DNA from: Abditibacterium sp.
GTDB taxonomy: Bacteria; Armatimonadota; Abditibacteriia; Abditibacteriales; Abditibacteriaceae
Direction of reading: 5' to 3'
Assembly (NCBI GenBank): GCA_965199495.1
Contig: CBDASK010000003.1
Span: forward strand, 4,096,001 to 4,160,000
Length of the DNA: 64,000 bases
The notes under the pieces are model-generated. The model did not search any database, was not told the origin of the DNA, and saw nothing but the letters and a program-made list of their open reading frames with translations. Of the stretch, positions 4,244 through 64,000 are shown piece by piece. How positions within the stretch are numbered: position 1 is the stretch's first letter; each line of letters begins with the position of its first letter. The position numbers and the translations under genes are program-made.

Positions 4244-6073
4244 ATGTCCGAAACGACGCGCCAACCTTTCAAACTTCATCTGCCCGGTCTTCTCAAAGTG
4301 CTGGCCGAACATCTTTACTCCAACAAGCAAGTCGCCGTGCGCGAACTGATTCAAAACGCCCACGACGGTTGCCGCCGCCGTCAGGCCGAATCGAACGAAA
4401 CCGATTACGAGCCGCGCATTGATATTCAGATTGATGGCCCGCGCCGCGTTTTATCCATTTCCGATAACGGTTACGGTTTAACGCGCCACGAAATCGAAGA
4501 ATATCTGGCGACGATTGGCCGCTCTTACACGCGCGAATTGCGCCAGAACCTGAGCGCTTTGTCGCCCGACGAAGCCGCCCGACTCATCGGCCAATTCGGC
4601 TTCGGTTTTCTGTCGGCGTTTTTGTTGGCCGACGAAGTCAAAGTCATCACCAAAAGTTTTCAGGGCGAGGACGCCTTTGAGTGGAACTCGGACGGCGGCG
4701 AAACCTACGAAATCAAAGACGCCAAACGCAGTCAAACCGGCACGACCGTGGAGTTGCGCGTCAAAAGCGCCGCCAGTTTCGTGTTACGCGAGCAGACTTT
4801 GCTTGAAATCGTGCGTCAATTCGCCGATTTTCTGCCGATTCCAATTCATATCAACGGCGAATCGCAGCAGGCCAATCTGGGCACGCCGCCGTGGAACGCC
4901 CGCAACGTCGAAGCAGCCACGCGCGATTACATCGGGCGCGCTTTCGATACGTCCGAGCCGCTGGCGATTATTCCGCTCCACGATGTCATCGAAGAAATCG
5001 GCGACGATAATATTACGATTCCTCTGCGCGGTTTTCTGTTCGTGCCGCCGGGCACGGTCGCGAGCGTGCGCGAATACGGCGATGTTTTAGTCTTCATTCG
5101 CCGGATGTTCATTTGTCGCGAAGACAAAGATTTGCTACCGCAATGGGCGCGCTTCGTGCGCGGCGCGATTGATTGTCCGTTGTTGCAACCGACGGCCTCG
5201 CGCGAAGATTTGCATCAGGACGAAACTTTCGAGAAAGTGCGCGACGCCATCGAAGCGCAATTGGCGCAGGGACTTCAAGACATCGCCGAGAATCAGCCGG
5301 AAGCGTGGGAGAAAATCGTGCGCGGGCATACCGATTTGATTACGGGCTGGGCCGCGCGCGACGAAGGTTTTTTCGAGGCCGTGTGCGACATCGTGACTTT
5401 TCGCACCTCGCGCGGCGCGCTGACTTTGCCGGATTATCTGAGTCAAAGCGACGGCAATTTTTACTACACCACGCGCGAATTGGGTTCGCTGCAAGAGCGC
5501 GTTTTGGCCGAAGCGCACGGTGTTCCGGTCATTGACGCGTCGTGGTTTGGCGTGCAGCCGTTTCTGGCGCGCTACTCGATGCGCGTGGCGAATTGCGGTT
5601 TGATTCAACTGGACGGCGAATCGAAAAATTTATTGCGTTCGGTTGATCCGGAAAAGTGGAGCGGGGTCTTAGATTACTACGACCGCCGCGACGTGGCTGC
5701 TCAGGTCGCCGAGTTCCGCCCGCCCGAAATCCCGGCGCTGATGTTCTATCCCGAAGACGCCGAATTCGCCATCGAAGGCCGCCAAGCGATTGACAACGGC
5801 GAAATCGCCGATCCTTTGGCCGCGCTGTTGGGCGATTATCTCGACAACCACGCCTCCGATTCCGATAAAGTCGCGGGCACCCTCGTGATTAACGCCTCAA
5901 ATCCGTTGATGCGGAATTTGCAAACCGAAACTGAAAGCGCCGCGCGCGATGCCGCTCTCGAATTGGTGCATCAGATGGCGCGCCTGTTCAACGGTCGCAC
6001 GCTCAGCGCGCAGGACGCCAGCCGCGCGTTTCGCGGCGTGAGCGAAGCGGTGGAGTTAATGCGCGAGCGGTGA
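4244..6073 (+). CDS. Hsp90/HtpG-like GHKL ATPase (divergent family)
   Basis: LYSNKQVAVRELIQNAHD, DNGYG, IGQFGFGFLS, GTTV, LQPTASRE motifs. Confidence 0.88.
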   Translation: MSETTRQPFKLHLPGLLKVLAEHLYSNKQVAVRELIQNAHDGCRRRQAESNETDYEPRIDIQIDGPRRVLSISDNGYGLTRHEIEEYLATIGRSYTRELRQNLSALSPDEAARLIGQFGFGFLSAFLLADEVKVITKSFQGEDAFEWNSDGGETYEIKDAKRSQTGTTVELRVKSAASFVLREQTLLEIVRQFADFLPIPIHINGESQQANLGTPPWNARNVEAATRDYIGRAFDTSEPLAIIPLHDVIEEIGDDNITIPLRGFLFVPPGTVASVREYGDVLVFIRRMFICREDKDLLPQWARFVRGAIDCPLLQPTASREDLHQDETFEKVRDAIEAQLAQGLQDIAENQPEAWEKIVRGHTDLITGWAARDEGFFEAVCDIVTFRTSRGALTLPDYLSQSDGNFYYTTRELGSLQERVLAEAHGVPVIDASWFGVQPFLARYSMRVANCGLIQLDGESKNLLRSVDPEKWSGVLDYYDRRDVAAQVAEFRPPEIPALMFYPEDAEFAIEGRQAIDNGEIADPLAALLGDYLDNHASDSDKVAGTLVINASNPLMRNLQTETESAARDAALELVHQMARLFNGRTLSAQDASRAFRGVSEAVELMRER

Positions 6074-6082
6074 AATTACTTC

Positions 6083-6397
6083 ATGGAATTTTTCGGTCTA
6101 ATTTTCTTGCTGCCGATTGCTTTGGTAATCAGCCTATTTTTGCCTGCGCTCATCTATAAATTTCTTGGTAAATTTCGGTTTGCGCGTTTGGCGGCGGCGC
6201 TTTTATGCGTCCTATTTCTCTTTTCGCTCGTTGTCGAACTCGCGTTAATTGCCAGATTCGGAATGGTAAGCGCACACGATAAATATTATCCGTTGTTGGA
6301 TCGGATGCAGGGCTATAACACGATTTTTGTCCCGCTGGCTTTGACAGCATTTGTGGTTCTCTTGCTACGAAACCAAAACCTTAAAACCCTCAGATAG
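6083..6397 (+). CDS. Small membrane protein
   Basis: Three hydrophobic segments; AT-richer than flanks. Confidence 0.55.
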   Translation: MEFFGLIFLLPIALVISLFLPALIYKFLGKFRFARLAAALLCVLFLFSLVVELALIARFGMVSAHDKYYPLLDRMQGYNTIFVPLALTAFVVLLLRNQNLKTLR

Positions 6398-6609
6398 TGC
6401 GCGGGGTTCGTCTGTTTTTGCGCTTTCATACTATCCGCATTTGCCAGCTTATTTTACGATTCCAGGGCACATTATCGCACGGATGGCGAGGGGACTTACC
6501 GCATCGAAGAACATTAATCGACAGCCGATTATTTTGTTCGTTAACTTGCGAACCACACTCACTTGGGCGCGTCTGAGTGAGGCCAAATCTGAACAAGGAG
6601 GGCCAAATC

Positions 6610-7548
6610 ATGAAAAACAGCAGCAAGAAAGCGTTGGAAAAACGCGGTATCGTCAGTGCGGGCCGCGCAGCAGCCACGCCGGGCGCGCGCGCGCACGACG
6701 ATAAACGTCGCGCCAATCGCACGACCGATAAACAGCGCCTCAAACGCGAAGTTCAACTCGAAACGGCCCGCAATCGCGGGCCGTTTCCGTTTGGTCGGAG
6801 ACCTTTTTCTCCAACGCGTTGCGCGCTGATAACTTTGGGTTTGGCCGCGCTGTTGTGGCTGATTTATACCGTCCTGCGCTCGCGCGTTTTGCTCGCCAAC
6901 GGACGAATTATCGGGCAACAAAGCGCGACTTTTGCGCGTGATTATTTCGTGGGTGAAATTGACAAACCCTTCGTAACCTATTTGGCGATGGGCGACAGCA
7001 CCGCCGCCGGTTGGGGCGCCAAAACGTGGGAAGCGACTTATCCCTACTTAGTCGCGCGAGCTTTGGCGGAGCGCGGTTTTCGCGTTCATGTCGTCGTCGT
7101 GGCTATTGGTGGTGCCACGGTTAATGGCGTGAAAACGCGACAACTCGAAGCGATTGAGCGCGTGCGTCCCGACTGGATCACGCTTTCGGTCGGTGCCAAC
7201 GACGCCACACACTTCACGGCGCCCACCGATTATCGGCGCGATTTGAGCGCGATTCTCGCCGCACTCGAAACCAGTTCGGCGCGCACGATCTTAGTCGCCG
7301 ACACGCCCGATATGTTTCTGGCGCCCGCGTTGCCGTTGCCGCTCTCTATGGGCACAGCGCGGCGCGCACGCGACCAAAACGCCATTTTGCGCGAGTTAAA
7401 AAGTGATTCGCGCATTCAAATCGTCGAGCTTTACCAACGTGGCAAATTGGACGCGCGCGCAAATCCGAAACTTTACGCCGCCGACCGTTTTCATCCGTCG
7501 GACGAAGGTTATGCGAAGTGGGCGCAATTGTTTATCGAGAAAATTTAG
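6610..7548 (+). CDS. SGNH/GDSL hydrolase with TM anchor, in frame with an N-terminal basic peptide
   Basis: GDS(T), GAND and DRFHP blocks; SD AAGGAGG before ATG 6610. The hydrolase may have its own start near 6835. Confidence 0.75.
   Translation: MKNSSKKALEKRGIVSAGRAAATPGARAHDDKRRANRTTDKQRLKREVQLETARNRGPFPFGRRPFSPTRCALITLGLAALLWLIYTVLRSRVLLANGRIIGQQSATFARDYFVGEIDKPFVTYLAMGDSTAAGWGAKTWEATYPYLVARALAERGFRVHVVVVAIGGATVNGVKTRQLEAIERVRPDWITLSVGANDATHFTAPTDYRRDLSAILAALETSSARTILVADTPDMFLAPALPLPLSMGTARRARDQNAILRELKSDSRIQIVELYQRGKLDARANPKLYAADRFHPSDEGYAKWAQLFIEKI
6760..6787 (+). terminator. Intragenic terminator-like hairpin
   Basis: GAAACGGCCCGC-AATC-GCGGGCCGTTTC, 12-bp perfect stem followed by an imperfect T-tract. 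Confidence 0.6.
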
Positions 7549-9072: not shown

Positions 9073-9939
9073 TTACGCGTGCTTCATGCCCAGGGCTTGC
9101 GAAATCAGCACGGTGGCTTTGCTTTTGTTGAGCGTGTAAAAATGCAATCCGGCGACATCTTGGGCCAAAAGGTCTTCGCATTGGCGAATCGCGTATTCGA
9201 CGCCCGCCGCATGAACGCTTTGCGGATCGGATTCCAGACTTTCCATCTGGCGCAAAATCGGGTTGGGGATTTTCGCGCCGCACATCGTCACGAATCGCTT
9301 GGTCTGGCCGATATTGAGAATCGGCATCAGACCCGCCACGAGCGGCGCCGTCACGCCCATGCCGTGCAAACGATCGCGCCAACGGAAGAACTCGGCGTTA
9401 TCGAAAAACAGTTGCGTGATGACGAACTGCGCGCCCTTGTCCAACTTCTGCTTGAGATATTCGGCGTCGCGTTCGAGGTTCAAACACTGCGGATGTCCTT
9501 CGGGATAGCCAGCCACGCCGATGCAAAACGGATGGCGATTGGCGGTGAACTCAACCAAATCGTCGGCATTGGCGAAACCGCCTTCGGTGACGGAAAAAGT
9601 CTGTTGACCGGGCGCCGCGTCGCCGCGCAGCGCGAGGATATTGCGGATGCCGCTTTCCCACGCCCGATCCAAAAGTTCGCCGATTTGATCGCGCGTATAA
9701 CCGGCGCAGGTCAGGTGGCTCATCGCGGTGAAGCCGGTTTGGTTCTGAATGCGCGCCGTTAGGTCGAGCGTGGGTGGCGCGCCGCCGCCGGTGCGGGTAA
9801 TCGAAACAAAAGAGGGCGCCAGAGGTTTGAGTTCTTCGATAACGCCCATGAGCTGGGCCTCACTCTCGGCATCTTTGGGTGGGAAAAACTCGAAAGAGAG
9901 CGTCGGAACGCCTTTGGAAAATAGTTCATCAATTCGCAT
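9073..9939 (-). CDS. metF: 5,10-methylenetetrahydrofolate reductase
   Basis: SFEFFPPK, HLTC, ILALRGD, YPEGHP, ITQLFFD, HFYTLN. Confidence 0.96.
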   Translation of the reverse strand: MRIDELFSKGVPTLSFEFFPPKDAESEAQLMGVIEELKPLAPSFVSITRTGGGAPPTLDLTARIQNQTGFTAMSHLTCAGYTRDQIGELLDRAWESGIRNILALRGDAAPGQQTFSVTEGGFANADDLVEFTANRHPFCIGVAGYPEGHPQCLNLERDAEYLKQKLDKGAQFVITQLFFDNAEFFRWRDRLHGMGVTAPLVAGLMPILNIGQTKRFVTMCGAKIPNPILRQMESLESDPQSVHAAGVEYAIRQCEDLLAQDVAGLHFYTLNKSKATVLISQALGMKHA

Positions 9940-11750: not shown

Positions 11751-13655
11751 ATGATTCAAGTTACTTTTCCCGACGGCAACGTCCGCGAATTTCCCGACCA
11801 CTCGACTCCGCTCGCCATCGCTCAATCCATCGGCTCAAGGTTGGCCAAGGCCGTTTTGGGCGCGAATGTCAACGACCAACCGTGGGATTTAACGCGCCCG
11901 CTCGAAGGCGATTCCGCTCTTCAACTTTACACCTGGGACGACGCGCAGGGACGCGAAGTTTATCGTCATTCTTCGACGCATTTAATGGCCCAGGCAATTC
12001 AAGAATTGTATCCCGACGCCAAGCTCACCATCGGCCCGCCTTTGGAAGACCGTTACTATTACGACATCGACGTGGCTGCTATTTCGGAAGACGATTTTCC
12101 CAAGATCGAAGCCAAAATGATGGAGCTGGCCCGCGCCGATTTGCCCATTACCTGCGAGACGATTTCGCGCGCCCACGCGCTCGAACTGTTCGCCGATAAT
12201 CCTTATAAAACCGAATTGATTAACGCTCTGCCCGACGACGCGCCCATTACAATTTATCGTCAGGGCACGTTTTTGGATTTGTGTCGCGGCCCGCACTTGC
12301 CTTCGACCGGTATGATTAAAGCCGTCAAATTGCTGTCGGTCGCCGGAGCGTTCTGGCGCGGCGACGCCGACAACGCGCAGTTGCAGCGACTTTACGGCAC
12401 CAGTTATCCCAGCCAAAAAGAGTTGGAGCAGCACATGGCGCGCTTGGAAGAAGCCAAGGCGCGCGACCATCGCAAGTTGGGCCGCGAGTTGGGTTTGTTC
12501 GTGCTATCGCCCGAAGTCGGCGCCGGTTTGCCGCTTTGGACGCCCAAAGGCGCCGCGATTCGTCACGCCCTCGAATCGTTTATTCGCAGTGAGCTGACCA
12601 AGCGCGGCTATCAAATGGTCGTTACGCCGCACATCGCCAACGCCAAGCTGTTCGAGACAAGCGGCCACGCCGTGGCTTACGTCGAGTCCATGTTCCCGAT
12701 GATGGAGCGCGACAACGACCGCTTTGTTTTGAAGCCGGTCAACTGCCCGATGCACATCGAACTTTACGCTTCGCAACCGCGCTCCTACCGCGATTTGCCG
12801 GTGCGATTGGCCGAATTTGGCACGGTTTATCGTTGGGAATTGTCCGGCGAAGTCGGCGGATTAACGAGGGTTCGCGGCTTCACCCAAGACGACGCGCATA
12901 TTTTTCTGCGCCCCGAACAGTTGGTCGAAGAGTTCAAATCGCAGGTCGAATTGGTTTTGCTCGTTCTCGGACGTCTGGGCCTGAGTTATACGGCGCGCGT
13001 TGGACTTCGCGATCCGCAGTCCGATAAATACGTCGGCTCGGACGAAGCGTGGGAGCAATCGCAAGCCGCGCTTTTGGAAGCGGTGCAGGAATTGGGCATG
13101 GATCACACCGTCGAAGAAGGCGAGGCCGCGATTTACGGCCCAAAGTTAGATTTCATCGTCAACGACGCCATCGGTCGCCAATGGCAGTTGGGCACGGTTC
13201 AAGTTGACTACGTTTTGCCCGAACGATTTGAACTCGAATACACCGGCTCCGATGGCCAAAAACATCGTCCGGTGATGATTCATCGCGCGCCCTTTGGCAG
13301 TTTGGAGCGGTTCACCGGCGTTCTCATCGAACATTTCGCCGGTGCTTTTCCGCTCTGGATGGCGCCAGTTCAGGTTCAGGTTTTGCCGATTGCCGACCGC
13401 CATTTCGATCATGCGCGCGATGTGGCTGCTAAGTTGAAAGAGGCCGGATTCCGCGTCGAAGTCAACGATGACAACGCCAAAATCGGCGCCAAAATCGCGA
13501 TTGCCGAAACGCAGAAAGTGCCGTATATGGCGATCATCGGCGACAAAGAAATCGAAGTGGGCGGCGTCAGTCTGCGCGCGCGCGGACGGCAAGATTTGGG
13601 CGCGATTGGCTTGGACGAGTTGATCGAGAAATTGAACGCCGAAGCGACTGTGTAA
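11751..13655 (+). CDS. thrS: Threonine--tRNA ligase
   Basis: TGS domain, HSSTH and DLCRGPH editing motifs, RDHRKLG, KPVNCPMH, RVRGFTQDDAHIF. Confidence 0.98.
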   Translation: MIQVTFPDGNVREFPDHSTPLAIAQSIGSRLAKAVLGANVNDQPWDLTRPLEGDSALQLYTWDDAQGREVYRHSSTHLMAQAIQELYPDAKLTIGPPLEDRYYYDIDVAAISEDDFPKIEAKMMELARADLPITCETISRAHALELFADNPYKTELINALPDDAPITIYRQGTFLDLCRGPHLPSTGMIKAVKLLSVAGAFWRGDADNAQLQRLYGTSYPSQKELEQHMARLEEAKARDHRKLGRELGLFVLSPEVGAGLPLWTPKGAAIRHALESFIRSELTKRGYQMVVTPHIANAKLFETSGHAVAYVESMFPMMERDNDRFVLKPVNCPMHIELYASQPRSYRDLPVRLAEFGTVYRWELSGEVGGLTRVRGFTQDDAHIFLRPEQLVEEFKSQVELVLLVLGRLGLSYTARVGLRDPQSDKYVGSDEAWEQSQAALLEAVQELGMDHTVEEGEAAIYGPKLDFIVNDAIGRQWQLGTVQVDYVLPERFELEYTGSDGQKHRPVMIHRAPFGSLERFTGVLIEHFAGAFPLWMAPVQVQVLPIADRHFDHARDVAAKLKEAGFRVEVNDDNAKIGAKIAIAETQKVPYMAIIGDKEIEVGGVSLRARGRQDLGAIGLDELIEKLNAEATV

Positions 13656-13758: not shown

Positions 13759-14175
13759 ATGAAATTCGCTCTTACTTTCGCGCCCGACACGCGCGAGCCA
13801 ATCATTGGACGCACACTTTCGCAGTTGCATCTGGCGTTCAAACGGGGGCTTGGCGGCGAGATTTTTCAGGTTCAACTCGATCCCGAAAAAGACGACGGAA
13901 CAATTGAAGGTTTGAACGCCTTTTTCAACGCCAAGCGCGCGTGGCTTATCTGGAGCAACGCCGATGGCGAATGGCTTTATCCAGTCAATACCGAACACGC
14001 CGCGTTAGAGCCGATTGAAGAAGATTGTTTCATCGAAAACGGGCAGTTGGACAGCTACTCAATCGCGTGGAGTCATGGGCGCGAACGCGCGATTCGCGTG
14101 TTAATTCACTATTTCGAGACCAGCGCACTGGCGCCGTGGCTGCATTGGACGAGCGAAGAATATTGGATAAATTAA
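13759..14175 (+). CDS. Putative Imm1-family immunity protein
   Basis: About 138 aa; C-terminal AIRVLIHYFETSALAPWLHW pattern resembles Imm1. Confidence 0.55.
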   Translation: MKFALTFAPDTREPIIGRTLSQLHLAFKRGLGGEIFQVQLDPEKDDGTIEGLNAFFNAKRAWLIWSNADGEWLYPVNTEHAALEPIEEDCFIENGQLDSYSIAWSHGRERAIRVLIHYFETSALAPWLHWTSEEYWIN

Positions 14176-48798: not shown

Positions 48799-49689
48799 TT
48801 ATTCTTCGTCCGGATCGGTGAGAACTGCGGTTATGAAGCTATCCAGATAAGATTGATTGATGGTGTTCAAGGTCTCCGCAATTTTGGGCGGAGGGACAAC
48901 TGTGACTTCCGGTTTGCCGTCGTTGGCTTGTCCCATTCCCACTTCGGATTTGACGAGACCTTGCAGCAGTTGAATCAAGCCTCCGATTTGTCCTGTCTTC
49001 ATATTTTGAGTGGGCGTCTGTGCATCAGCCAACGCCAAAACTTGATTGAACGAATCTAACGCGCCTTTAAAGTCGCGCTGATTCATATCAACTTCGCCTC
49101 TTTTGATCAGAGCCAACAGACGATAACCCGAATCCCCCTTGCTGTATTCGGTGATTTGCTTCAACTCTTGCTGCGCCAAATCGTATTGTTTAGTGGCGGC
49201 GTAAGCGTTGGCCAATGCAAAGTTAAACGGCGCGAGAGTCTGTTTGCCTTCTGCTGTGTTGGCGTCCGTTATTTGAGTCTTGAGACTTTCGATGAAGGTT
49301 TTGTATTCGGGAATCGCTTTGTCGAATTGGCCCTGCGCGTCATAACTCCGCGCGAAACCAAAATGCGCGAAAGCGTGCGAACTTTCGTCATCGTTGTCGG
49401 GCAACGCGAGAATTTTCGTCCATTGCTGTTGCGCCTCGTCATACATTTTGCGGCGATAATACGATTCGCCCAGCAAAGTCAACGCCTCGCCAGTTTCTTC
49501 GGGCGATGCAGCCACGGCGAGCGACTCGGCGACATCCTTAGTGGCGGCCTCATATTTTTCGCTTTTGAAATCGCGTTGGCCCGCCGCAAGCGCGGTTTCG
49601 TAAGTCGTCGGTTGCGCGTCTTGCGCGTGGCTGCTGTTGGCAAAGCCCGCACACAAAATCGCGCAGAGAACGAGAGTTGAATTTTTCAT
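48799..49689 (-). CDS. Exported TPR protein
   Basis: Signal peptide and several TPR repeats. Confidence 0.8.
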   Translation of the reverse strand: MKNSTLVLCAILCAGFANSSHAQDAQPTTYETALAAGQRDFKSEKYEAATKDVAESLAVAASPEETGEALTLLGESYYRRKMYDEAQQQWTKILALPDNDDESSHAFAHFGFARSYDAQGQFDKAIPEYKTFIESLKTQITDANTAEGKQTLAPFNFALANAYAATKQYDLAQQELKQITEYSKGDSGYRLLALIKRGEVDMNQRDFKGALDSFNQVLALADAQTPTQNMKTGQIGGLIQLLQGLVKSEVGMGQANDGKPEVTVVPPPKIAETLNTINQSYLDSFITAVLTDPDEE

Positions 49690-52350: not shown

Positions 52351-53280
52351 TCAAATCGGTTTGCGCGCGAGGGCCATAATCGTCTCGAAGTGCGGCGGCG
52401 CGCTTTCGCGATCCACGCGCGAAACTTCGATTTCGCCAAAACCCGCGTCGCTCAGCAAACTCGACATTTCGACGGGCGAAAACCCCAGCCAAACGTGCGC
52501 ATAAAGTTCGCGCGCGGCCTCGAACTCGTGGCGCACCAAATCGAAAACCACAATTTGTCCGCCCGGCTTCAACACGCGCGCCGCCTCAGCCACGGCGCGG
52601 TCGGGATGCAAAACGTGATGCAACGTCTGGTGCATCAACGCCAAATCTACCGCGCCGTCGTCAATCGGCACGTTTTCCATGTCACCCAACCGATATTCCA
52701 AATTCGACAATCCGTTGCTCGCCGCCAACTCGGCGCCGTATTCGCGCATTTTGGGCGAATTATCAACCGCAATCACACGCTTGGCGCGCTGAGCCAACAA
52801 AAGCGAAAGCGTCGCTTCGCCCGCGCCCAGATCGGCGATTTCGAGTGGCGGCAACAAGCGCAAAAACATTTCGGATAATGCTTTCCACGAACGGCCCGGC
52901 ACGTAATCGCGCCCGAATTTTCCGGCCAATTCGTCGAAATGCGTCTTCAAAGCGTCGCTGCGTTTTTCCAGTAATAATCGCAACGCCTCATCGTCGTGCG
53001 CGGACTGGGCGATTTCGGCCTGACTGCGCTGCAAAACATCTTGCACCAAAGCCTTCATGCCGGGCGGCGTGGCTGCTTTGTAAAGGTTCTTCTGGCCGAC
53101 GCGCCGCAACTCCACAAATCCGCCGCCCTTGAGCTGCGCCAGTTGCATCGAAATCCGGCTCTGGCCCATGCCCAAAATCTCCTGCAACTCGGCGACGCTG
53201 AGTTCCTCGCGGTCGAGCAGACGCAATACGCGCACGCGGTTGGCATCGCCCAAAATTCGCAGCGCCTTGAAAAATTCCAT
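52351..53280 (-). CDS. sahR: ArsR-HTH + SAM-methyltransferase regulator (SahR-like)
   Basis: ArsR N-terminus, DLGAGE, LHH; divergent from ahcY. Confidence 0.82.
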   Translation of the reverse strand: MEFFKALRILGDANRVRVLRLLDREELSVAELQEILGMGQSRISMQLAQLKGGGFVELRRVGQKNLYKAATPPGMKALVQDVLQRSQAEIAQSAHDDEALRLLLEKRSDALKTHFDELAGKFGRDYVPGRSWKALSEMFLRLLPPLEIADLGAGEATLSLLLAQRAKRVIAVDNSPKMREYGAELAASNGLSNLEYRLGDMENVPIDDGAVDLALMHQTLHHVLHPDRAVAEAARVLKPGGQIVVFDLVRHEFEAARELYAHVWLGFSPVEMSSLLSDAGFGEIEVSRVDRESAPPHFETIMALARKPI

Positions 53281-53395: not shown

Positions 53396-54892
53396 ATGTC
53401 CACAATTTTAGCCGAAGACAAAGTCGCCGCCAAAGGCGCACAGCAAGCCAAACTCGATTCGATGGTTGCCGATATTGACGTCAACTTTACCGATTACAAA
53501 GTCGCCGATATTGCGCTCGCGAGCTGGGGCCGCAAAGAAATCAACGTCGCCGAACACGAAATGCCCGGCCTGATGGCGATTCGTAAAAAATACGCCGCTG
53601 ACAAGCCGTTGCAGGATGTGCGTATCACCGGCTCGTTGCACATGACGATTCAGACCGCCGTTTTGATCGAGACTTTGGTCGAATTGGGCGCCGATGTGCG
53701 TTGGGCGAGCTGCAACATCTTCTCGACGCAAGATCACGCCGCCGCCGCGATTGCAGCCACCGGCACGCCGGTCTTCGCTTGGAAAGGCGAATCATTGGAA
53801 GAATATTGGTGGTGCACCAATCAGGCTTTGTCGTTCCCCGGCGACCTCGGCCCGCAAATGGTCGTGGACGACGGCGGCGACGTGACGTTGTTGATTCACA
53901 AGGGCTACGAACTCGAAAATGGCGACGACAAATGGGTCAATTCCGCGTCGGGCAGTTTGGAAGAGAAAGTCATCAAGAACTTGCTCAAAACGATTCAAGC
54001 CGAGACGCCGGAGCGTTGGCGCAACGTGGTGAAAGAGTGGAAAGGCGTTTCGGAAGAGACGACGACGGGTGTTCACCGTTTATATAAGATGCAGGCCGAG
54101 GGCAAATTGCTCGTTCCCGCCATTAACGTCAACGATTCCGTGACCAAATCGAAGTTCGACAATCTTTACGGTTGCCGCGAGAGTTTGGCCGATGGAATCA
54201 AGCGCGCGACCGACGTGATGTTGTCGGGCAAAGTCGCGGTGATTTGCGGCTACGGCGATGTCGGCAAAGGTTCGGCTCAGTCGCTGCGCGGATTGGGCGC
54301 GCGCGTTGTCGTCACCGAAATCGATCCGATTAACGCGCTACAAGCCGCGATGGAAGGCTATGAAGTCAAGACCGTCGAAGACACGTTGGGCTGGGGCGAT
54401 ATTTACGTGACGACGACCGGCAACGTGGATATTCTCCGTTTGGAACACATGGAAAAGATGAAAGATCAGGCGATTGTCTGTAACATCGGCCATTTTGACA
54501 ACGAGATTCAGGTCGACAAACTCAACAACGCGCCGGGCGTCGAGCGTTTGGAAATCAAGCCGCAGGTTGACCAATACACCTTCCCCGACGGCCACCAAAT
54601 TTTCATGTTGGCCGAAGGCCGTCTGGTGAACTTGGGGTGCGCGACCGGACATCCGAGTTTCGTGATGTCGGCGAGTTTCGCCAACCAGACTTTGGCGCAG
54701 TTGGATTTGTGGGCTAAGAAAGATGAATACGAAGTCGGCGTTTACGTTTTGCCCAAGAAATTGGACGAGGAAGTCGCGCGCTTGCATCTGGAGAAAATCG
54801 GCGCGAAATTGACCGTGCTGACCAAAGAACAAGCCGATTACATCGACGTGGCTGTTGAAGGCCCGTATAAAGCCGAGACTTACCGTTATTGA
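53396..54892 (+). CDS. ahcY: Adenosylhomocysteinase
   Basis: [41 protein letters not shown]. Confidence 0.98.
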
Positions 54893-55618: not shown

Positions 55619-57552
55619 TTTGGCACGGGCGCCGTGGCTGCTCCGTTGGCGGCTTCTTTCGCTTTCTCCTTCTCCACTTTCTTCTCGACTGCCACAGCTT
55701 TTTTCTCGGCTTCCTCGACTTTCTTCACCACTTTCTCGACCTTTTCTTCGGCGGCTTTTTCGCCGGGAATGAGCGTGATTATTGTGTCGTTGGCGTTCGG
55801 TTCGATCTGGCTGTCGGCGGCGATGACGAACAGTTCGCCTTTTTCGGTGATGAGAAAGAGCGGAATCGCGTAAACGCCATAGCGGTCACGCAGGTCTTCG
55901 TAAGTAAATTCGGCGCTCAGTTTGGTGGCTTTCACGGTCGCACCTTTGGCGAACGCTTCGTTGAGTTGCGTCCACGAAGTGCCCCGGTCGAAGATGAGAC
56001 GCCCGCGTTGGTTTGGCCCGACCGATTCGTGGCGCGCGTGACCCGCGCGTTTGAATGAAAGCTGGAACACGCCCGCGCGCCCGAACAATTCGATGTAATT
56101 CATGCAGGCGAGCGCGTTGACTTCGTCGTTGCGCGTCAGAGCCACGAGGCGTCCGTATTCGCCTTGTTCGGCGGCTTCGTGCGCGACCTTCGACATAATC
56201 GAAGTATGTTGCGCGGTCAAACCGGCCATCTTCGCCGCCGCCGTGTTGCTCACATCGGTATCCACCATCAGCACGCTGATGCCCGCTTTTTTGAGCGCCT
56301 CGGCAATTTTGCGCGACCAATCGTTGGCGCCCACGATCATCACGCCGTTGGGCGCGGGTTTGGCGATGCCCAATTTCTTGGCGACAAAACTCGCCGTCAA
56401 ACCATAAAGCGCGACGGTGCCGACGATAATCACGACCGTGACTGGCACGATGGATTCGGCGCCCGACAAAGGTTCGTCCATCGCGAGTAGGCGTTGCGCA
56501 AAAATAGAAGCCACCGCCGCCGCCACGATGCCGCGCGGCGCCATCCAACTCAAAAATAATTTCTCTTGCAGCGTGACTTTGGTGCCGATGGTCGAAAGAA
56601 ACACGCTGAGCGGGCGCGCGACAATCACCATCAATACCAGAAACGCGATGCTGCCCCAGCCGATTTCTCGCAGTTCTTCGACGCGCAGACGCGCGGCCAG
56701 TAAAATAAACAGTCCCGAAATCAACAAAACGCGCAGGTTTTCTTTGAACTCGACGATGTGGCCGACGGCGATCCATTTCTGGTTCGCCAAAATTACGCCC
56801 ATCAGCGTAACGGCGACCAAGCCCGATTCGGCCTGCAAGTGATTGGAAAACGCGAACGCGCCCGCGACAAACGCCAAAACCGCCGGGTTTTGCAGTTCGT
56901 CGGGAATCCAGAAGCGCCGCAGCAAACTCGCGAGGGCACCCGCCGCGACTAAGCCGACGCCACCGCCAAAAAGCAGCGTTTTGCCAATCGAAAGCGCGAT
57001 AAATTGCCAACCGTCGGAATGACCGACAATCGCCTCGAACACGATGACCGCCAGCACCGCACCAATCGGGTCAATGACGATGCCTTCCCAGTTGAGAATC
57101 GAAGAAACCTTGGCCGTCGGTCGCACATGGCGCAAAAGCGGCCCGATAACTGTCGGGCCAGTGACAACCAGAATCGCGCCCAGCAAAAGTGCGACGCCCC
57201 AGTCTTGAATGCCGACGAGGTAATGCGCGCCCAGCGTGCCCACGACCCACGTCGCGAGCGCGCCGACCGATAATAATCGCCACAAAACCGCGCCGACATG
57301 AGGCAATTGACTAAGACGCAACGTGAGACCGCCCTCGAACAGGATGACAGCCACGGCGAACGAGATAATCGGAAACAGTAGTCCGCCGAAAACTTTGTTG
57401 GGATCGAGAATGTGCGTTACCGGCCCCGCGATGAAGCCGAAGACGAGCAGCAACAAAATCGCGGGCAGACGCACGCGCCAGCCCAGCCACTGTGCGCCGA
57501 TTCCTAAAACTATGGTGAGCGCGATGCCCACTAAACGCTGATGTTCTTCCAA
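55615..57552 (-). CDS. CPA1 cation:proton antiporter with RCK/NAD-binding C-terminal domain
   Basis: LFEGG, TGPTV, WEGI.IDP, APRGIVAA; TTG start after AAGGGA chosen over the MITE-derived ATG 57666. Confidence 0.9.
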   Translation of the reverse strand: MEEHQRLVGIALTIVLGIGAQWLGWRVRLPAILLLLVFGFIAGPVTHILDPNKVFGGLLFPIISFAVAVILFEGGLTLRLSQLPHVGAVLWRLLSVGALATWVVGTLGAHYLVGIQDWGVALLLGAILVVTGPTVIGPLLRHVRPTAKVSSILNWEGIVIDPIGAVLAVIVFEAIVGHSDGWQFIALSIGKTLLFGGGVGLVAAGALASLLRRFWIPDELQNPAVLAFVAGAFAFSNHLQAESGLVAVTLMGVILANQKWIAVGHIVEFKENLRVLLISGLFILLAARLRVEELREIGWGSIAFLVLMVIVARPLSVFLSTIGTKVTLQEKLFLSWMAPRGIVAAAVASIFAQRLLAMDEPLSGAESIVPVTVVIIVGTVALYGLTASFVAKKLGIAKPAPNGVMIVGANDWSRKIAEALKKAGISVLMVDTDVSNTAAAKMAGLTAQHTSIMSKVAHEAAEQGEYGRLVALTRNDEVNALACMNYIELFGRAGVFQLSFKRAGHARHESVGPNQRGRLIFDRGTSWTQLNEAFAKGATVKATKLSAEFTYEDLRDRYGVYAIPLFLITEKGELFVIAADSQIEPNANDTIITLIPGEKAAEEKVEKVVKKVEEAEKKAVAVEKKVEKEKAKEAANGAATAPVPN

Positions 57553-59106: not shown

Positions 59107-61160
59107 GGGGCGGTTGTTGCTATTATCTGTTTCAAACGCGCTTCCAATTCGTCGGCGTCGTCGTAGGTATCTATGCTACCGCCGCCGCCAACGGCGGCGG
59201 CCATTTCGCGATTGTGCGGCGCGATGAGTTTGGCTGCCGCGACATCTTTGAGCGCGCGCTCCGCCAGTTTACGCGCGCGCGTGCTTTGACCTTCTTGTTT
59301 CAGTCGCGGCGCCAACAGAGCCACGCCGCGCGCGAAGTCCAAATTAACTTGATCGTTATCGGATAGCGCCGGATAGCGACCGTAAGGCGCGTCCCACAAA
59401 TCCATTAATGTTTTCAAATCGTCGTAGCCGCGCGCGTCTTTGTGTTGCAACTGAAACTTGGCGCGCGTCAGCAAAAAATAAGAAGAAAGCGGCTCGCGTT
59501 TCAATGCCTCGCCCATCCATTTTTCGTAAAGGTCGGGCCGATTGTTGGCCTGCGCCACGCGCGCTAACGTCAGATAGTTCGCCGAACGGTCGGGCTGCAA
59601 TTCAATCGCGCGCTGCAACGCCGCGTTGCTATCCAAACCGTTGGCGCTTTGCAAATAACCCAAATTCGCCTGCAAACGCGACGAACCGGGCGCAATCGCG
59701 ACGGCTTGCTCGGCGAATTGCAACGCCTGCGCGCGCGAACCCAAATCGAGCAAACGCTGCGATTCGTTGTAAGCATCCTGTCCCTGCGCGGCCTGCTGTG
59801 TGCCAAATCCGGCCAAAGCCAACAGCAAAGTCGCGCCGATCCAACCCAAATTCAAGTTGCCGCGCGGTTCTTCAATTTCATCAATCGGCGCGGGCATTTG
59901 CAACAATCCCAGCGCAAGCGCCAATAAAATCACGACTGGCGTCGCGCCCCATCCGGCGTCGAAACAGCCATGAACGATCATCGCGATTAAAGCGCCGATG
60001 GCGCCCGCGCGCAACGCCCAACCTTCGTCGCGGCGCGCGCGCCAACCGTTGCGTAGCGCCAACGCAAAAGTCGCGGCCAAAATTAATAGCGCGGGCACGC
60101 CCGATTCGGCGGCGATTTGCAGCCACGATTCGTGCGCACTGCGCGCCGTTCCAGCGGGCGCGAACTGCGGATACGAACCGGAAAACGCGCCCGGCCCAAA
60201 ACCGAACACGGGGCGCGCTTCGATCATTTTGAGCGTGCCACGCCACAGGTAAACACGAAACATCGTCGAGTTATCGTCGGAGCCACGCGCCGCCAAAAGT
60301 CGCGGCACCACGGTTTTGGCGGCCAAGGCGCCGAAAACTAACGCCAACACCAAAACGGCGGGCAACATTTTGCGAAACACCGTTTTAAATGCGGCGGGCC
60401 GCGCCGCACGCAACGCGAAAATCGTGATGATCGAACCGACGAAAGCCGCCAACAATCCGCCTTTGCTCGACGTGACGGCCAGAGCCGGAAGCAAAATGAG
60501 AAACGGAATCGCGCCAACAATGGCGAAATTACGATTGCGCCAAACGTTCCAGACCGCGAGCGGCAAACCGATGGAAAGTGGAATCGCCAGGGCCAGCGCA
60601 TTGGCGAACAAATTGGGATTGAGAAACGTGCCGAACTGGCGCGGATCGTGTGTTTGGAAAAAATTAAATAACGCTTGTCCGCCTAAATATGTCACGCCCA
60701 AAACCGCCGCCGCGATGAAACCCAATTTTTGTGTGGGCCGGGGAAAGGCGCGAACGATGAAGAAAAATAAGAGCGCGCCGGTGATGCGGCCCAATTCGAG
60801 CCACGCGTCGTGCGCATAAGTGCCGGTAAGAACCGTCAGCAAACTCCAACCGAGAAACAGACTCAGACATGCAGCCACGGCGTCGAAGCGCGGGACAGGC
60901 AAACGTGAAATCGCGAGTAAAATTGCCACGCCCGCCAACAATAAAGTGAAAAGCGCTTGGGGCCAGAAATTGTAATCGCCGGGCCAAAAATTGGCGATTT
61001 GCGTGGGCGCGCACAACAATAAAATGAGCGCGCCCGCCCACGCGAGCAAACCGAAAAGCGAATCGAAACCGAGCGCGCCCGTTTTCTGAACCGGCGCTGC
61101 GCGCGCGCCGCGCATGGGAGAAGAAATCACGCGATTCAGTTTAATGGCGCCTCCATACAA
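59103..61160 (-). CDS. O-antigen ligase family protein with C-terminal TPRs (start uncertain)
   Basis: GTFLNPN, TSSKGG, R..LW, GFGPG, SAHESWLQ. Confidence 0.88.
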   Translation of the reverse strand: MYGGAIKLNRVISSPMRGARAAPVQKTGALGFDSLFGLLAWAGALILLLCAPTQIANFWPGDYNFWPQALFTLLLAGVAILLAISRLPVPRFDAVAACLSLFLGWSLLTVLTGTYAHDAWLELGRITGALLFFFIVRAFPRPTQKLGFIAAAVLGVTYLGGQALFNFFQTHDPRQFGTFLNPNLFANALALAIPLSIGLPLAVWNVWRNRNFAIVGAIPFLILLPALAVTSSKGGLLAAFVGSIITIFALRAARPAAFKTVFRKMLPAVLVLALVFGALAAKTVVPRLLAARGSDDNSTMFRVYLWRGTLKMIEARPVFGFGPGAFSGSYPQFAPAGTARSAHESWLQIAAESGVPALLILAATFALALRNGWRARRDEGWALRAGAIGALIAMIVHGCFDAGWGATPVVILLALALGLLQMPAPIDEIEEPRGNLNLGWIGATLLLALAGFGTQQAAQGQDAYNESQRLLDLGSRAQALQFAEQAVAIAPGSSRLQANLGYLQSANGLDSNAALQRAIELQPDRSANYLTLARVAQANNRPDLYEKWMGEALKREPLSSYFLLTRAKFQLQHKDARGYDDLKTLMDLWDAPYGRYPALSDNDQVNLDFARGVALLAPRLKQEGQSTRARKLAERALKDVAAAKLIAPHNREMAAAVGGGGSIDTYDDADELEARLKQIIATTAP

Positions 61161-61206: not shown

Positions 61207-62211
61207 GTGCGCTTTCTTTTTGCCTTCATCTTCCTGCCCGCCGTGGCTGCTCATTCCCAATCGAACTGGAACGGCCCGTTGCCCGCTGAAAACGCGCGGC
61301 CACTCAATCAAATTTTTCTGCATTTGCCGCCCGCTAATCCCGACGTTCTCGACAAAAATCAAAGCGCGTTGGGAATTCAACTCGACATCGCCAACAATTT
61401 ACTGATTCCCAATCCCGACGCGGGTGGAAGCGTCACCGAAGATTTCGAGACGCAGCGTTTAATGTTAGGTTACCGGCGCGGTCTGGGCCACGATTTGGAA
61501 GTGCGCGTAGACGGCCAACTCATCGCGCGCAACGGCGGCTTTGAGGACGCGCCAATTGACGCCTATCACCGCTTGTTTGGCATCAAGGCCAATGGCCAAG
61601 ACCAGCCGCAGGGCCGCTTTAACATTCCACGCAACCGTTCGATTCTGGCGTTTCAAAATGCCAACGGAAGCGGAATTAGCGAGGGCAGCGCCTTTGGCGT
61701 GGGCGATACGACTTTGAGTTTGCAACGCCAACTTTCGCGCGGCAAATTCGCCAGTGCCGCGCGTTTGGGCGTGAAATTGCCGACGGGAAGCGGCAACAAA
61801 ATTCTGGGTTCGGGCGGCTTCGATGGCGGCGCGAGTTTCGATGCGCGCTTCCAATTCGCGCGCAATTGGGCTTTGTTTGGCAACGCGGGCGCCTACACTT
61901 ATGGCGGCGCCGATGTGCCCGACGCCAAAAATAACGGAGTGAGCGGCGGTTTGGGTTTCGAGCGTCGCGTCGGCAAAGGCCAATCCATTCTGGCACAAAT
62001 CAACGCCGACAGCCGCGTCGTCACGACGGGCAACGCGTTCGCGGATAGAACGCCGGTTATCGCGTCGGTCGGCTACAAACGCCAATGGAAAACCGGCGCG
62101 TTATGGGCGTTCTTTTCGGAAAACGGCGATTATCACAATTACAACGCGCCATTTTTCGGCAACATCGCGCCCGATTTGACGCTGCGCTTCGGCTACGAAT
62201 TTCGGCGTTGA
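61207..62211 (+). CDS. DUF3187-like outer-membrane protein
   Basis: Signal peptide, GGF.D..ID.YH..FG, VKLPTG, GSGGFD. Confidence 0.7.
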   Translation: MRFLFAFIFLPAVAAHSQSNWNGPLPAENARPLNQIFLHLPPANPDVLDKNQSALGIQLDIANNLLIPNPDAGGSVTEDFETQRLMLGYRRGLGHDLEVRVDGQLIARNGGFEDAPIDAYHRLFGIKANGQDQPQGRFNIPRNRSILAFQNANGSGISEGSAFGVGDTTLSLQRQLSRGKFASAARLGVKLPTGSGNKILGSGGFDGGASFDARFQFARNWALFGNAGAYTYGGADVPDAKNNGVSGGLGFERRVGKGQSILAQINADSRVVTTGNAFADRTPVIASVGYKRQWKTGALWAFFSENGDYHNYNAPFFGNIAPDLTLRFGYEFRR

Positions 62212-62249: not shown

Positions 62250-62250
62250 G

Positions 62251-63369
62251 CTATTTCCCATCGCGTTTTCGCAATCGCTTGATTTCTTTCAAACGTTCCT
62301 CGCTCTCTTCGGCTTCTTCGATGAGCGTCATCTGCGCCGAAAACGCCGATGGCGGCGCGGGTTCGCCCAAATATTCGTAGGCGCGCCGCGTTATGCGACG
62401 GCCCGCCGGAGTGCGCGCTAAAAAACCAATTTTGAGCAGATACGGCTCGACGACATCAACGAGCGTATCGGATTCCTCGTTGAGCGTGGCGGCTAAGGCT
62501 TCGATGCCGACGGGGCCGCCGTCGTAAACGTCTTTGATGACGCTCAAAACCGCGTGATCTAATCTGTCTAAACCCAACTCGTCAATGCCTTCGAGCTTCA
62601 GGGCGTCGCGCGCGACTTCGAGCGTAATATCGCCGTTCGCGCGCACCAGAGCGTAATCGCGCACGCGGCGCAATAAGCGGTTAGCCACGCGCGGTGTGCC
62701 CCGGCTGCGGCGCGCGATTTCAAAGGCGGCTTGCGCGTCAATTTCGGTTTGCAAAATGTAGGCGCTGCGCCGCACAATCGAAACCAAATCTTCCTCGGTA
62801 TAGAAATCGAAGTGCTGCTGCAAACCGAAACGGTCGCGCAGTGGCCGCGTCAACATCGCCGGTCGCGTCGTGGCGCCGATAATGGTGAACTTTTCCAACC
62901 GAATCGGCAAAGGTTTGGAATACATGCCTTTATCGAGCGTGAAGTTGACGATGTAATCTTCCATCGCCGAATACAAAAACTCTTCGACGATACGCGGCAA
63001 ACGATGAATTTCGTCAATAAAGATAATGTCGCCCTCTTTGGCGTTGACCAAAAAGCCCATCACGTCGCCGGGCCGCTCCAACGACGGGCCACTCGTCAAA
63101 GCGATGTCGCGGCCCAATTCTTCGGCCATAATGTATGCGAGGCTCGTTTTCCCAAGGCCGGGCGGCCCAGATAACAACAAGTGATCCAGACTTTCGTGGC
63201 GCACTTTGCTGGCATCAATCGCGATTTTTAGGCGCTCGACGGCTTCACGCTGGCCAATATACTCGGCCAGACTTTTGGGGCGAAGTCCCCAGTTCCATTC
63301 CTTTTCGCCGCTGGATTTGCCGCCCTCTTCGGGCAGGTCGTCGGGCGAGACAATGCGTTCTCGTGACAT
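62251..63369 (-). CDS. ruvB: Holliday junction branch migration helicase
   Basis: LRPKSL.EYIGQ, GPPGLGKT, FIDEIHR, LRDRFG, RGTPR. Confidence 0.97.
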   Translation of the reverse strand: MSRERIVSPDDLPEEGGKSSGEKEWNWGLRPKSLAEYIGQREAVERLKIAIDASKVRHESLDHLLLSGPPGLGKTSLAYIMAEELGRDIALTSGPSLERPGDVMGFLVNAKEGDIIFIDEIHRLPRIVEEFLYSAMEDYIVNFTLDKGMYSKPLPIRLEKFTIIGATTRPAMLTRPLRDRFGLQQHFDFYTEEDLVSIVRRSAYILQTEIDAQAAFEIARRSRGTPRVANRLLRRVRDYALVRANGDITLEVARDALKLEGIDELGLDRLDHAVLSVIKDVYDGGPVGIEALAATLNEESDTLVDVVEPYLLKIGFLARTPAGRRITRRAYEYLGEPAPPSAFSAQMTLIEEAEESEERLKEIKRLRKRDGK

Positions 63370-63413
63370 CTCAAGCAGTTTAACTAAAACCAGTGAAACC
63401 GTGCGCTGGTTTT

Positions 63414-64000
63414 TTATTTCACGCTTTCGCGCCGACCCGCTTCCCAGCGATAGGGCACATCCGATAGATAAAACGCGTTGGCCAGAATCGGTTGGGCGCC
63501 CGCGAATCGCGGGTCGTCGAAGAAAGTATTAGCGCGCACTTCGACATGAACCGGTATGGGATTCCACTTCTTGCGGATGCCTTTGACCAAAATCATCGAA
63601 TGCGTCTGGCGTTCATAATCGAAGGTGTAGGGCAGTGGCCCAGCGTAGCGGCGCGCGGTTTCGATGTCGGGAAACGGCGAATTCGCGGGCAAGGGCGACG
63701 GCGTGGCTATATCAGCAGCCACGGCGAGATGAACATCGGGCGCGCGCGTTTCGATATTTAGGGTTTGGCCCGCCAATTCAAAGCGCGTGCGGGCGAACTG
63801 ATAGTTGTAATGCGTGAAAAGATTGCCCACATATTTCATCAGAAGTTTGTCGGTATCGGAGCGCAGAATTTGCAAACCGTGCAGGTTGCGGCCCGCGCGA
63901 TTGCGGTAGCGCGCGAAGATGCGATAGCCCGCTAAAAAGAAATTTTGGCCCAAAGGCGCGGGCAAGAAAGACGGGCGCAAAGCGCGCGTCCCCACCAGAG
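63414..64000 (-). CDS. DUF2071-like protein (partial)
   Basis: LRP.FLP..LG..F....YRIF, GNLFTHY.Y; runs off the window end. Confidence 0.6.
   Translation of the reverse strand, partial: LVGTRALRPSFLPAPLGQNFFLAGYRIFARYRNRAGRNLHGLQILRSDTDKLLMKYVGNLFTHYNYQFARTRFELAGQTLNIETRAPDVHLAVAADIATPSPLPANSPFPDIETARRYAGPLPYTFDYERQTHSMILVKGIRKKWNPIPVHVEVRANTFFDDPRFAGAQPILANAFYLSDVPYRWEAGRRESVK

Follow-up and report, generated by a model that had tools for sequence, protein, structure and literature searches.

According to the available part of a recent account (bioRxiv 10.1101/2025.10.24.684340), self-DNA recognition by uptake sequences is known only in Neisseriaceae and Pasteurellaceae. The same text lists as hallmarks of a DNA-uptake-enhancing sequence (DUES) a length of 9-10 nt, hundreds to thousands of copies, dialects, inverted repeats and permissive reading frames, together with core enrichment and absence from recent acquisitions. 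We analysed an over-represented word in a 64,000-nt stretch of the chromosome of an Abditibacterium sp. (hereafter the window; C3:4,096,001-4,160,000, with feature coordinates given as window positions) and in its source genome (G000). We found a real, genome-wide word that is imposed on the DNA, has no polarity and is private to the resident chromosome; it is young, and it evolves in dialects. By analogy with the described systems, it is somewhat likely (a probability of roughly 0.55) to be a DNA-uptake-enhancing sequence outside the Proteobacteria, spread by uptake-biased molecular drive.

The word resembles the DNA uptake sequence (DUS) of Neisseriaceae, as described in the parts of the sources at hand, in being a non-palindromic word of 10-12 nt with thousands of copies on both strands and with dialects of a common core in related lineages (PMC3630211), and in being core-enriched and missing from recently acquired DNA (bioRxiv 10.1101/2025.10.24.684340). 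It differs in its sequence, which is unrelated, in belonging to Abditibacteriota (the phylum in which NCBI places Abditibacteriaceae) rather than Pseudomonadota, and in its range: the DUS is family-wide, while the word occurs in 3 of the 13 species of one genus. With the uptake signal sequence (USS) of Pasteurellaceae it shares, going by the accessible portions of PMC1939737 and PMC2817400, a location mostly in coding DNA in frames of common peptides, an origin in point mutations of sequence already there, a short preference for A/T beside the core and a lack of strand polarity; unlike the USS, it is GC-rich, in a 56% GC genome. Like HIP1 (GCGATCGC), it is a hyper-abundant short intragenic word conserved beyond its neighbours (PMC5861425, PMC4390886 and PMC13756078, in the sections available). 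The function of HIP1 was long unknown and is now being linked to gene transfer and transformation, according to the available part of one report (bioRxiv 10.1101/2024.09.10.611283). However, HIP1 is a palindrome, read by an orphan methyltransferase and found phylum-wide, while the Abditibacterium word is longer, is not equal to its own reverse complement, and belongs to one small clade. We observed all the computational hallmarks of a DUES except a clear association with terminators.

Form, abundance and placement of the word

The assembly of G000 consists of three contigs, of which C3 (4.72 Mb, 55.7% GC) is the chromosome. Its GyrA has 76% identity to that of a metagenome-assembled genome labelled Abditibacteriaceae, and no more than 59% to any of the other 79 loci retained in the comparison. 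The genes of the window are ordinary core genes, including gyrA, thrS, GTP-PEPCK, relA/spoT, transketolase and SAH hydrolase. A first-pass annotation of the window had listed 28 copies of a 9-mer by eye, and a pattern search returned all 28 at exactly those coordinates and strands (15 on + and 13 on -). It had estimated about one copy by chance, which agrees with 100 dinucleotide-preserving shuffles (mean 0.79, maximum 4). Its remarks on the surroundings were also accurate: the next base is A/T in 27 of the 28 window copies, the CGN said to precede the 9-mer often is seen as CG at -3/-2 in 20 of the 28, and the core variants at 18961, 21474, 30471 and 54847 are real. All 28 copies lie in called genes, as had been stated for open reading frames, and in differing frames (VAA, AAT, PWLH/AWLL/SWLQ and CSHA/SSHV/SSHA). 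The window holds in total 72 CGTGGCT cores, 46 copies of the 10-mer CGNCGTGGCT and 20 full 12-mers.

We further determined the form of the word across the genome, which is C-G-V-C-G-T-G-G-C-T-G-C-W from the logo and from leave-one-out counts. At positions 0 to 6 the consensus base gave 1,350 copies, against 1-55 for any alternative. Position 7 (G) and position 8 (C) are softer, position -1 can be anything except T, and the flanks past ~13 nt carry little information. The chromosome has 1,780 9-mers (863 + 917 on the two strands; 0.377/kb), 2,913 copies of the 10-mer (one per 1.6 kb) and 1,350 of the 12-mer. The enrichment is not limited to the window, a possibility that had been named as a ground for dismissing it, as an order-3 Markov model expects about 77 9-mers on the chromosome (a 23x excess over the model). 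For CGCCGTGGCTGC the same model expects 3.9 copies and 690 were observed (178x). An order-5 (hexamer-level) model, whose expectation is inflated by hexamers of the word itself, expects 499 9-mers and 33 copies of CGCCGTGGCTGC (21x), and a maximum-order Markov ranking is uninformative for this word because its sub-words inflate their own expectation. The enrichment survives Markov orders 1-6 as well as the synonymous-codon-shuffled null. A full-text literature search for the 9-mer sequence returned primers and unrelated papers only.

To describe the word within genes, we used our own crude caller based on open reading frames and codon usage, which gave 3,649 genes covering 85% of the chromosome. 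The coding sequences hold 1,621 of the 1,780 9-mers (91%), against 77-106 in 20 within-gene synonymous-codon shuffles (~17x), and the excess over these shuffles holds in every one of the six frames (6-40x). The commonest frames are VAA (669) and AAT (562), and the orientation relative to the gene is balanced (831 sense, 790 antisense). V-A-A tripeptides are spelled GTGGCTGC (GTG-GCT-GC) in 40% of 1,797 cases, where codon usage predicts 3.7%, and A-A-T tripeptides are spelled GCAGCCACG (GCA-GCC-ACG) in 39.5% of 1,423 cases, where 0.9% is expected. The alanine codons that the word uses are rare (GCT 10% and GCA 6% of Ala usage). The 9-mer is present at 0.40/kb in genes and 0.22/kb in spacers of G000, unlike the DUS, which does not favour genes in this way. 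These counts indicated that the pressure behind the word acts on DNA and not on protein.

The word is dense on the chromosome and nearly absent from the plasmid, phage and islands, which was the contrast between core and accessory DNA that the uptake proposal had called for examining. Contig C1 (24.7 kb) encodes RepA, a MobA/MobL relaxase, a TraG/TraD-type coupling protein, ArdC and a resolvase, and is a mobilisable plasmid. Contig C2 (64.6 kb), with Mu Gam, a Mu-type portal, an S49 protease and a tape-measure protein, is a Mu-like phage genome. Per kb, the chromosome has 0.617 copies of the 10-mer, the plasmid 0.041 and the phage 0.031, which makes the word 15-20x rarer on the latter two. On C3 itself, 16 gaps of more than 10 kb lack the 10-mer, against 6 expected, and these cluster at 415-536 kb, 1,119-1,257 kb and 4,220-4,297 kb. 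The gap sampled from 429.8 kb carries GAP1/DO-GTPase genes, ParB and DUF932, together with a serine recombinase, a Prok-E2/ThiF/JAB protein and Mrr; that sampled from 1,203.6 kb carries a serine recombinase and an AAA_25 protein; and that sampled from 4,229.7 kb carries TnpB, a phage capsid and a phage portal. The three largest gaps are one prophage and two integrated elements. C2 further encodes a LAGLIDADG and papain-like protein, and ParB.

Replication polarity was evaluated next to a positive control. dnaA lies at 2.03 Mb on C3, and the weak cumulative GC skew has its minimum at ~1.8-1.9 Mb and turns at ~3.9-4.1 Mb; the replichores were set with the origin at 2.0 Mb and the terminus at 4.05 Mb. 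With these settings the most leading-skewed 8-mer of G000 is GGGCAGGG (189:36, 84%), which we take to fit the consensus GGGNAGGG of the FtsK-orienting polar sequences (KOPS). It is a KOPS-like word in a genome almost without GC skew, and it validates the replichore assignment. As it places the origin at ~2.0 Mb and the terminus at ~4.05 Mb, the window lies just past the terminus. The 10-mer, in contrast, has 1,447 leading and 1,466 lagging copies (49.7% leading) and does not exceed 51% leading with any symmetric choice of origin, while the 9-mer shows a small bias (53%). The lack of strand bias that had been claimed from the window is therefore a property of the whole chromosome. Chi and KOPS are co-oriented with replication. 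They are, like the word, over-represented on the resident chromosome and rare in foreign DNA; but no KOPS-type leading-strand skew toward the terminus was seen for the word, and as the 10-mer is unpolarised, a Chi or KOPS role was rejected.

Close relatives, dialects and the history of sites

Relatives were studied in samples of 200-460 kb each, except that the 12-mer counts are whole-genome, and G000 was read whole; the genus is represented by 13 genomes including G000. Among 41 genomes (own, genus, family, order, class and phylum), only three exceeded a control, the reversed word, by more than ~2.4-fold: G000 (1,783/141), G011 (1,411/146) and G004 (972/135). G011 and G004 are the nearest relatives of G000, syntenic with it and at 80-88% nucleotide identity, and the remaining ten genus members are at 71-77%. 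The comparison with related genomes that had been suggested thus places the word in close relatives only (3 of 13 genus genomes), with a second dialect in one of them.

De novo k-mer ranking returned the same word as in G000 from 400 kb of G011, and no comparable word from 200 kb each of G006, G009, G010 and G012. In 400 kb of G004 it returned a longer, different word, (T)(R)GGACGTGGCTGGTGTC, which we call dialect B. Dialects A and B share the core ACGTGGCTG. The dialect A 12-mer CGNCGTGGCTGC has 1,350 copies in G000, 1,047 in G011, 431 in G004 and 3-13 in the other ten genus genomes, while the dialect B 12-mer ACGTGGCTGGTG has 17, 13, 1,742 and 0-2, respectively. An apparent restriction of dialect B to one strand of G004 proved to be a listing artefact: the first 60 kb of the contig hold 13 forward and 9 reverse copies, and both strands carry it in two 200 kb samples.

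We examined how sites arise using an alignment of transketolase from the 13 genomes. At none of its six word positions is there an indel in the word, and the 10 outgroup genomes, which do not have the word, are unrelated or partly similar in sequence at these places. All three word-bearing genomes share a part of the sites, while others are found in G000 and G011 only or in G011 and G004 only. Together with the aligned blocks of G000 and G004, this established that the word arises by point substitution in place and not by insertion, and the indel-free alignments ruled out a mini-insertion or mobile element in G000.

In a 214 kb alignment of G000 and G011 (84.8% identity), 105 of 156 G000 sites were perfect in G011, compared with 33% of random 9-mers. 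The non-perfect sites were bimodal: 25 of them differ from the word by one mismatch, 4 by two and 17 by three to five. Where the amino acid is conserved, the codon was identical in 89.5% of cases (n=554) if its third base lies in the word and in 73.9% (n=54,119) elsewhere; the values in and outside the word were 86% and 49% for GCT, and 80% and 33% for GCA. The synonymous positions of the word are thus maintained between G000 and G011, which shows directly the selection on DNA rather than protein that the first-pass annotation had deduced from the frames.

This excess was gone between G000 and G004 (63.9% in the word, 67.8% outside). In 230 kb of alignment at 79.9% identity, 23 of 152 G000 dialect A sites were perfect in G004, which is below the 23% found for random 9-mers, while 23 of the 32 dialect A sites of G004 were perfect in G000. 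At least eight orthologous positions have A flanks in G000 and B flanks in G004 around the same core. These alignments suggest that the common ancestor of the three already used dialect A, and that the G004 lineage changed specificity, converting some sites and making new ones, with its remaining A sites decaying.

The three genomes also differ in where the copies lie. Dialect A is mainly intragenic in G000 and G011 (0.40-0.55/kb in genes vs 0.22-0.27/kb in spacers), while dialect B, counted over 460 kb of G004, has an 8x higher density in spacers (1.75/kb vs 0.21/kb in genes). Close pairs (<=60 nt) in G000 are inverted in 88 cases and direct in 5, where about equal numbers are expected. Their flanks are unrelated and they are mostly intragenic (17 of the 88 inverted pairs are intergenic), which again differs from the DUS, and the word density in G000 is flat across convergent, tandem and divergent spacers. 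In G004, 118 of 209 B sites stand in inverted pairs that form ~20 bp hairpins, of which there are 57 in the 460 kb. The DUS, in the part of the account available, likewise occurs in inverted pairs (bioRxiv 10.1101/2025.10.24.684340); in G004 more than half of the copies are in intergenic hairpins. The hairpins have a mean of -41 kcal/mol, variable loops and unrelated outer flanks. By spacer, the intergenic ones are tandem in 26 cases, convergent in 11 and divergent in 9, and 23 of 47 are beside a T run. Compared with G000, 6 of 19 aligned B sites show indels. The hairpins may be terminators, REP-like (repetitive extragenic palindromic) units, or both.

The proposed uptake role and the alternatives to it

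The uptake genes that the first-pass annotation proposed to look for (comEA, comEC and type IV pilin genes) are present in G000, and dprA as well. ComEC is full-length (DUF4131 + Competence + Lactamase_B), and ComEA (SLBB + HHH_3) and DprA are accompanied by 6-8 secretins and seven T2SSE ATPases. The type IV pilus operon encodes PilB, a PilT-like protein, PilC and PilD; it also has four pilin-like genes and one for a 1,366-aa protein that belongs to no known family.

With such machinery, double-stranded DNA with the word would be preferred by a DNA receptor on the cell surface, which probably belongs to the type IV pilus apparatus. Pilus retraction would pull the DNA through the secretin, ComEA would hold it and ComEC would import one strand, which DprA and RecA would recombine into the chromosome. 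Because word-bearing alleles would be taken up more often, point substitution would turn near-matches in the core into perfect copies (molecular drive), and plasmids, phages and islands of recent arrival would be without the word. A change of receptor specificity in the G004 lineage would then have rewritten the flanks of the same core as dialect B. Biased uptake, the receptor and natural competence of G000 are what we infer from these patterns.

Several observations weigh against this proposal. ComEC was found in 13/13 and a ComEA-like HHH_3 protein in 12/13 genus genomes, the pilus operon is syntenic in 7/7 relatives examined with no clade-specific gene, and we saw no gene gain among the uptake genes that would mark the origin of the word. 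As the uptake genes are genus-wide, the machinery permits an uptake role but does not mark the clade. The DUS is read by the minor pilin ComP; G000 has no ComP_DUS homologue (PF16732; best E 0.998, 12.6 bits, i.e. no match), and its 48 pilin-like genes include no clear receptor. The 618-aa pilin-like gene at C3:868592-870448 is the fastest-evolving of the pilus operon (50% identity to G011, 42% to G004 and 30-36% to others, while its neighbours are at 77-95% to G011). However, it is only 50% identical between the two dialect A genomes, and its divergence does not track the dialects. The near-absence of direct pairs in G000 is not predicted by uptake alone. The mismatch load was also unusual: 2,913 perfect 10-mers face 113 in an order-3 simulated chromosome, but 10-mers with one mismatch are at chance (2,909 vs 2,729 simulated, 1.07x), and therefore the profile is very sharp. 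It is sharper than that of known uptake systems; H. influenzae has 764 singly mismatched USS per 1,471 perfect ones, according to the available part of PMC1939737. The hairpins of G004 recall REP-like elements because their arms begin with GTAG, a head typical of REPs. Our literature search found no paper joining 'uptake sequence' with Armatimonad*, and no such motif appeared in the part of the Abditibacterium/Abditibacteriota literature covered (titles and abstract starts). The first-pass reading of the word as a DUS-like uptake signal therefore stands in part: the computational tests all came out as it predicted, but the uptake genes are not clade-specific and there is no ComP-type receptor, so it stays a well-supported candidate.

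Other explanations would place the reader of the word inside the cell. A recombination, repair or defence enzyme could spare DNA tagged with the word while untagged incoming DNA is degraded, a Chi-like role without polarity. The dense core and nearly word-free plasmid, phage and islands would fit such a tag, as would the synonymous-site maintenance, and random two-ended breaks would need both orientations everywhere. Dialect B also contains GCTGGTG, presumably 7 of the 8 letters of E. coli Chi. But the word has no replichore polarity, although the genome has retained a polar KOPS-like one. G000 gave no match to the RecC family (AddAB was not searched), and at 10-18 nt the specific word far exceeds the 5-8 nt of Chi sites. 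To our knowledge, an enrichment of more than 100x with a chance-level one-mismatch class is not typical of Chi either, and we regard a cytoplasmic tag as unlikely. A HIP1-like process of sequence-directed repair or modification inside the cell, such as a correction of near-matches linked to a methyltransferase or nickase, could also have made the word hyper-abundant without a surface receptor. One-mismatch 10-mers at chance and two-mismatch 10-mers slightly depleted (0.93x vs the simulated chromosome) look as if near-matches were corrected, and recently arrived mobile DNA would be word-free under this model too. The cyanobacterial HIP1 is also 15-300x over-represented in genes and methyltransferase-read, in the portions available of PMC5861425 and PMC4390886. 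Short-patch repair as known, however, corrects a single mismatch type and not each position of a 10-mer, and the word is non-palindromic and 10-18 nt long. We know of no methyltransferase or Vsr-type site resembling it. Such a HIP1-like process is thus decidedly doubtful, although it may merge with the uptake proposal, as HIP1 has recently been linked to transformation. An intracellular 'genome watermarking' system of an unfamiliar kind, which would convert near-matches of a 10-18 nt word and not serve uptake, is unlikely. It is given some room by the 10-mers with one mismatch being at chance and those with two depleted, by the 88:5 ratio of inverted to direct pairs, and by word-bearing and word-free genomes not differing in their uptake genes. 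A change in the specificity of this system would have rewritten the sites of the sister species by the thousand.

An abundant nucleoid-associated or chromosome-organising protein, with ordinary selection on each binding site, would suit the roughly even spacing (~1 copy per 1.6 kb of core) and the conservation of sites between G000 and G011, and a dimeric binder could suit the excess of inverted pairs. Yet thousands of sites held against codon usage imply a very weak benefit for each, and the dialect switch between sister species would need thousands of sites to be re-selected. We know of no nucleoid protein with a sharp, non-palindromic site of 10-12 nt at such density, and consider this improbable. 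A small mobile repeat spread by copying (of the REP/REPIN type, with a Y1/RAYT transposase) is very improbable. The G004 hairpins with their GTAG arms, the spacer preference of B sites there, the indels at 6 of the 19 aligned sites and the presence of Y1_Tnp genes in 12/13 genus genomes speak for it. But most G000 copies are intragenic, in six frames, with uninformative flanks, and appear in orthologues by indel-free substitution, while the loops and outer flanks of the G004 hairpins vary between copies. None of 8 inspected Y1_Tnp loci (6 in G000, 2 in G004) was bracketed by the word, and Y1_Tnp is equally common in word-free genomes. A REP/REPIN-RAYT origin was thus largely refuted for G000, the hairpin form in G004 apart. 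That codon, dicodon or peptide usage, or CpG-rich composition, produces the word as a side effect has a negligible probability. Its favoured frames do encode common peptides and CG runs are abundant in the genome. But the excess over synonymous shuffles, the rare Ala codons, the 12-mer at 21x above the order-5 model, the enrichment in spacers too, and the relatives at 71-77% nucleotide identity and 55-63% GC (samples) that are without the word all speak against it. The synonymous shuffle, the codon-choice counts, the Markov models and the word-free relatives ruled out a codon or peptide artefact. Together, these comparisons led us to conclude that the mobile-element and codon explanations are essentially excluded for G000.

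It is still debated how thousands of genomic sites and a receptor come to fit each other, and the word offers a young system, born within one genus and absent from relatives at ~71-77% nucleotide identity. A dialect switch is seen midway, with old-dialect relics in G004 and orthologous sites converted in place, and one core has two habits: G004 has it mostly in intergenic hairpins, G000 and G011 mostly in coding DNA. The route to the reader of the word is short, since a comparison of three genomes suffices. If the proposed uptake bias is true, a phylum that is distant and has hardly been studied would also recognise self-DNA in transformation, by means of a receptor not related to ComP, and tagged DNA would be a genetic handle for organisms that are hard to manipulate.

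Sites in the window and other repeats

The sites of the window are collected in the table.

Table. Copies of the word in the window, by window position
Form	Position	Strand	Reading, gene or variant	Occurrence in orthologues
10-mer form CGGCGTGGCT(CC)	3655..3666	+		
9-mer CGTGGCTGC	4913..4924	-	GCG before	
full 12-mer CGACGTGGCTGC	5689..5700	+	frame VAA	
full 12-mer CGGCGTGGCTGC	6670..6681	-	read AAT	
10-mer form	7095..7106	+		
10-mer form	9509..9520	-		
full 12-mer	12068..12079	+	thrS, frame VAA	
10-mer form	12668..12679	+		
full 12-mer	14132..14143	+	frame PWLH	
full 12-mer	15910..15921	+	read CSHA	
full 12-mer	16830..16841	-	frame VAA	
10-mer form	17882..17893	-		
10-mer form	18958..18969	+	first-pass variant 18961	
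full 12-mer	19284..19295	-	frame VAA	
9-mer	20212..20223	-	CAC before, frame VAA	
inverted pair, two 10-mer forms	21471..21504	both (21471 +, 21493 -)	variant 21474	
10-mer form	24814..24825	-		
10-mer form	27598..27609	-		
full 12-mer	28908..28919	+	read AAT	
10-mer form	30468..30479	+	variant 30471	
10-mer form	31263..31274	+		
10-mer form	31882..31893	+		
10-mer form	32005..32016	+		
full 12-mer	33422..33433	-	relA/spoT, read AAT	
full 12-mer	35227..35238	+	read AAT	
head-to-head inverted pair	37576..37598	9-mer - (37576-37587), 12-mer + (37587-37598)	sulfite/nitrite reductase gene	
10-mer form	38214..38225	+		
9-mer	38850..38861	-	CAA before, read AAT	
10-mer form	39384..39395	+		
9-mer	39451..39462	-	GCG before, read AAT	
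10-mer form	42050..42061	-		
10-mer form	43006..43017	-		
10-mer form	44840..44851	-		
full 12-mer	45121..45132	+	transketolase, read SSHV	in G000, G011 (10-mer), G004; not in 10 distant orthologues
10-mer form	45495..45506	-	transketolase	G000-specific
9-mer	46013..46024	+	transketolase	common to G011 only
overlapping inverted pair	48135..48153	10-mer - (48135), full 12-mer + (48142)	frame AWLL	
full 12-mer	49508..49519	-	frame VAA	
9-mer	49623..49634	+	read SSHA	
full 12-mer	51568..51579	+	read AAT	
10-mer form	52586..52597	-		
full 12-mer	53065..53076	+	read AAT	
10-mer form	54844..54855	+	variant 54847	
full 12-mer	55630..55641	+	read AAT	
10-mer form	57347..57358	-		
10-mer form	59317..59328	-		
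9-mer	60119..60130	-	AAT before, frame SWLQ	
full 12-mer	60871..60882	-	frame VAA	
full 12-mer	61239..61250	+	frame VAA	
tail-to-tail inverted pair	63699..63726	10-mer + (63699), full 12-mer - (63715)		

Two genes of the window were noted for their products. A 1,421-aa protein (15365-19630) has a PD-(D/E)XK nuclease fused to an AAA_11/AAA_12 helicase, and its gene is adjoined by that of a bacterial type IB topoisomerase (19908-21038).

We also observed other repeats. At 47152-47305 of the window there is a long, near-perfect inverted repeat with arms of ~60 nt, resembling a miniature inverted-repeat transposable element and word-free inside. It holds the 13-mer GTAGAGACACCGA, which has 153 genome copies, and dozens of copies of the repeat are present in G000, G011 and G004. 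A second palindromic intergenic repeat of ~140 nt (57615-57765) is found many times over in G000 and G011, on either strand.

Elsewhere on C3, alternating CG runs are unusually frequent, and CGCGCGCGC is the commonest 9-mer (3,093 copies). GACCCGATTAAAAC and ATCTCACAAGACCC belong to another repeat family, which has 131 copies; the 8-mers of this family, GGGTCTTG, GTGAGATT and AGATTGAA, lie 76-80% on the leading strand, and the family is thus replication-oriented. In the G010 sample, the palindrome GTTTCACGTGAAAC occurs 12 times in 200 kb, and may be a regulator site or a small repeat.

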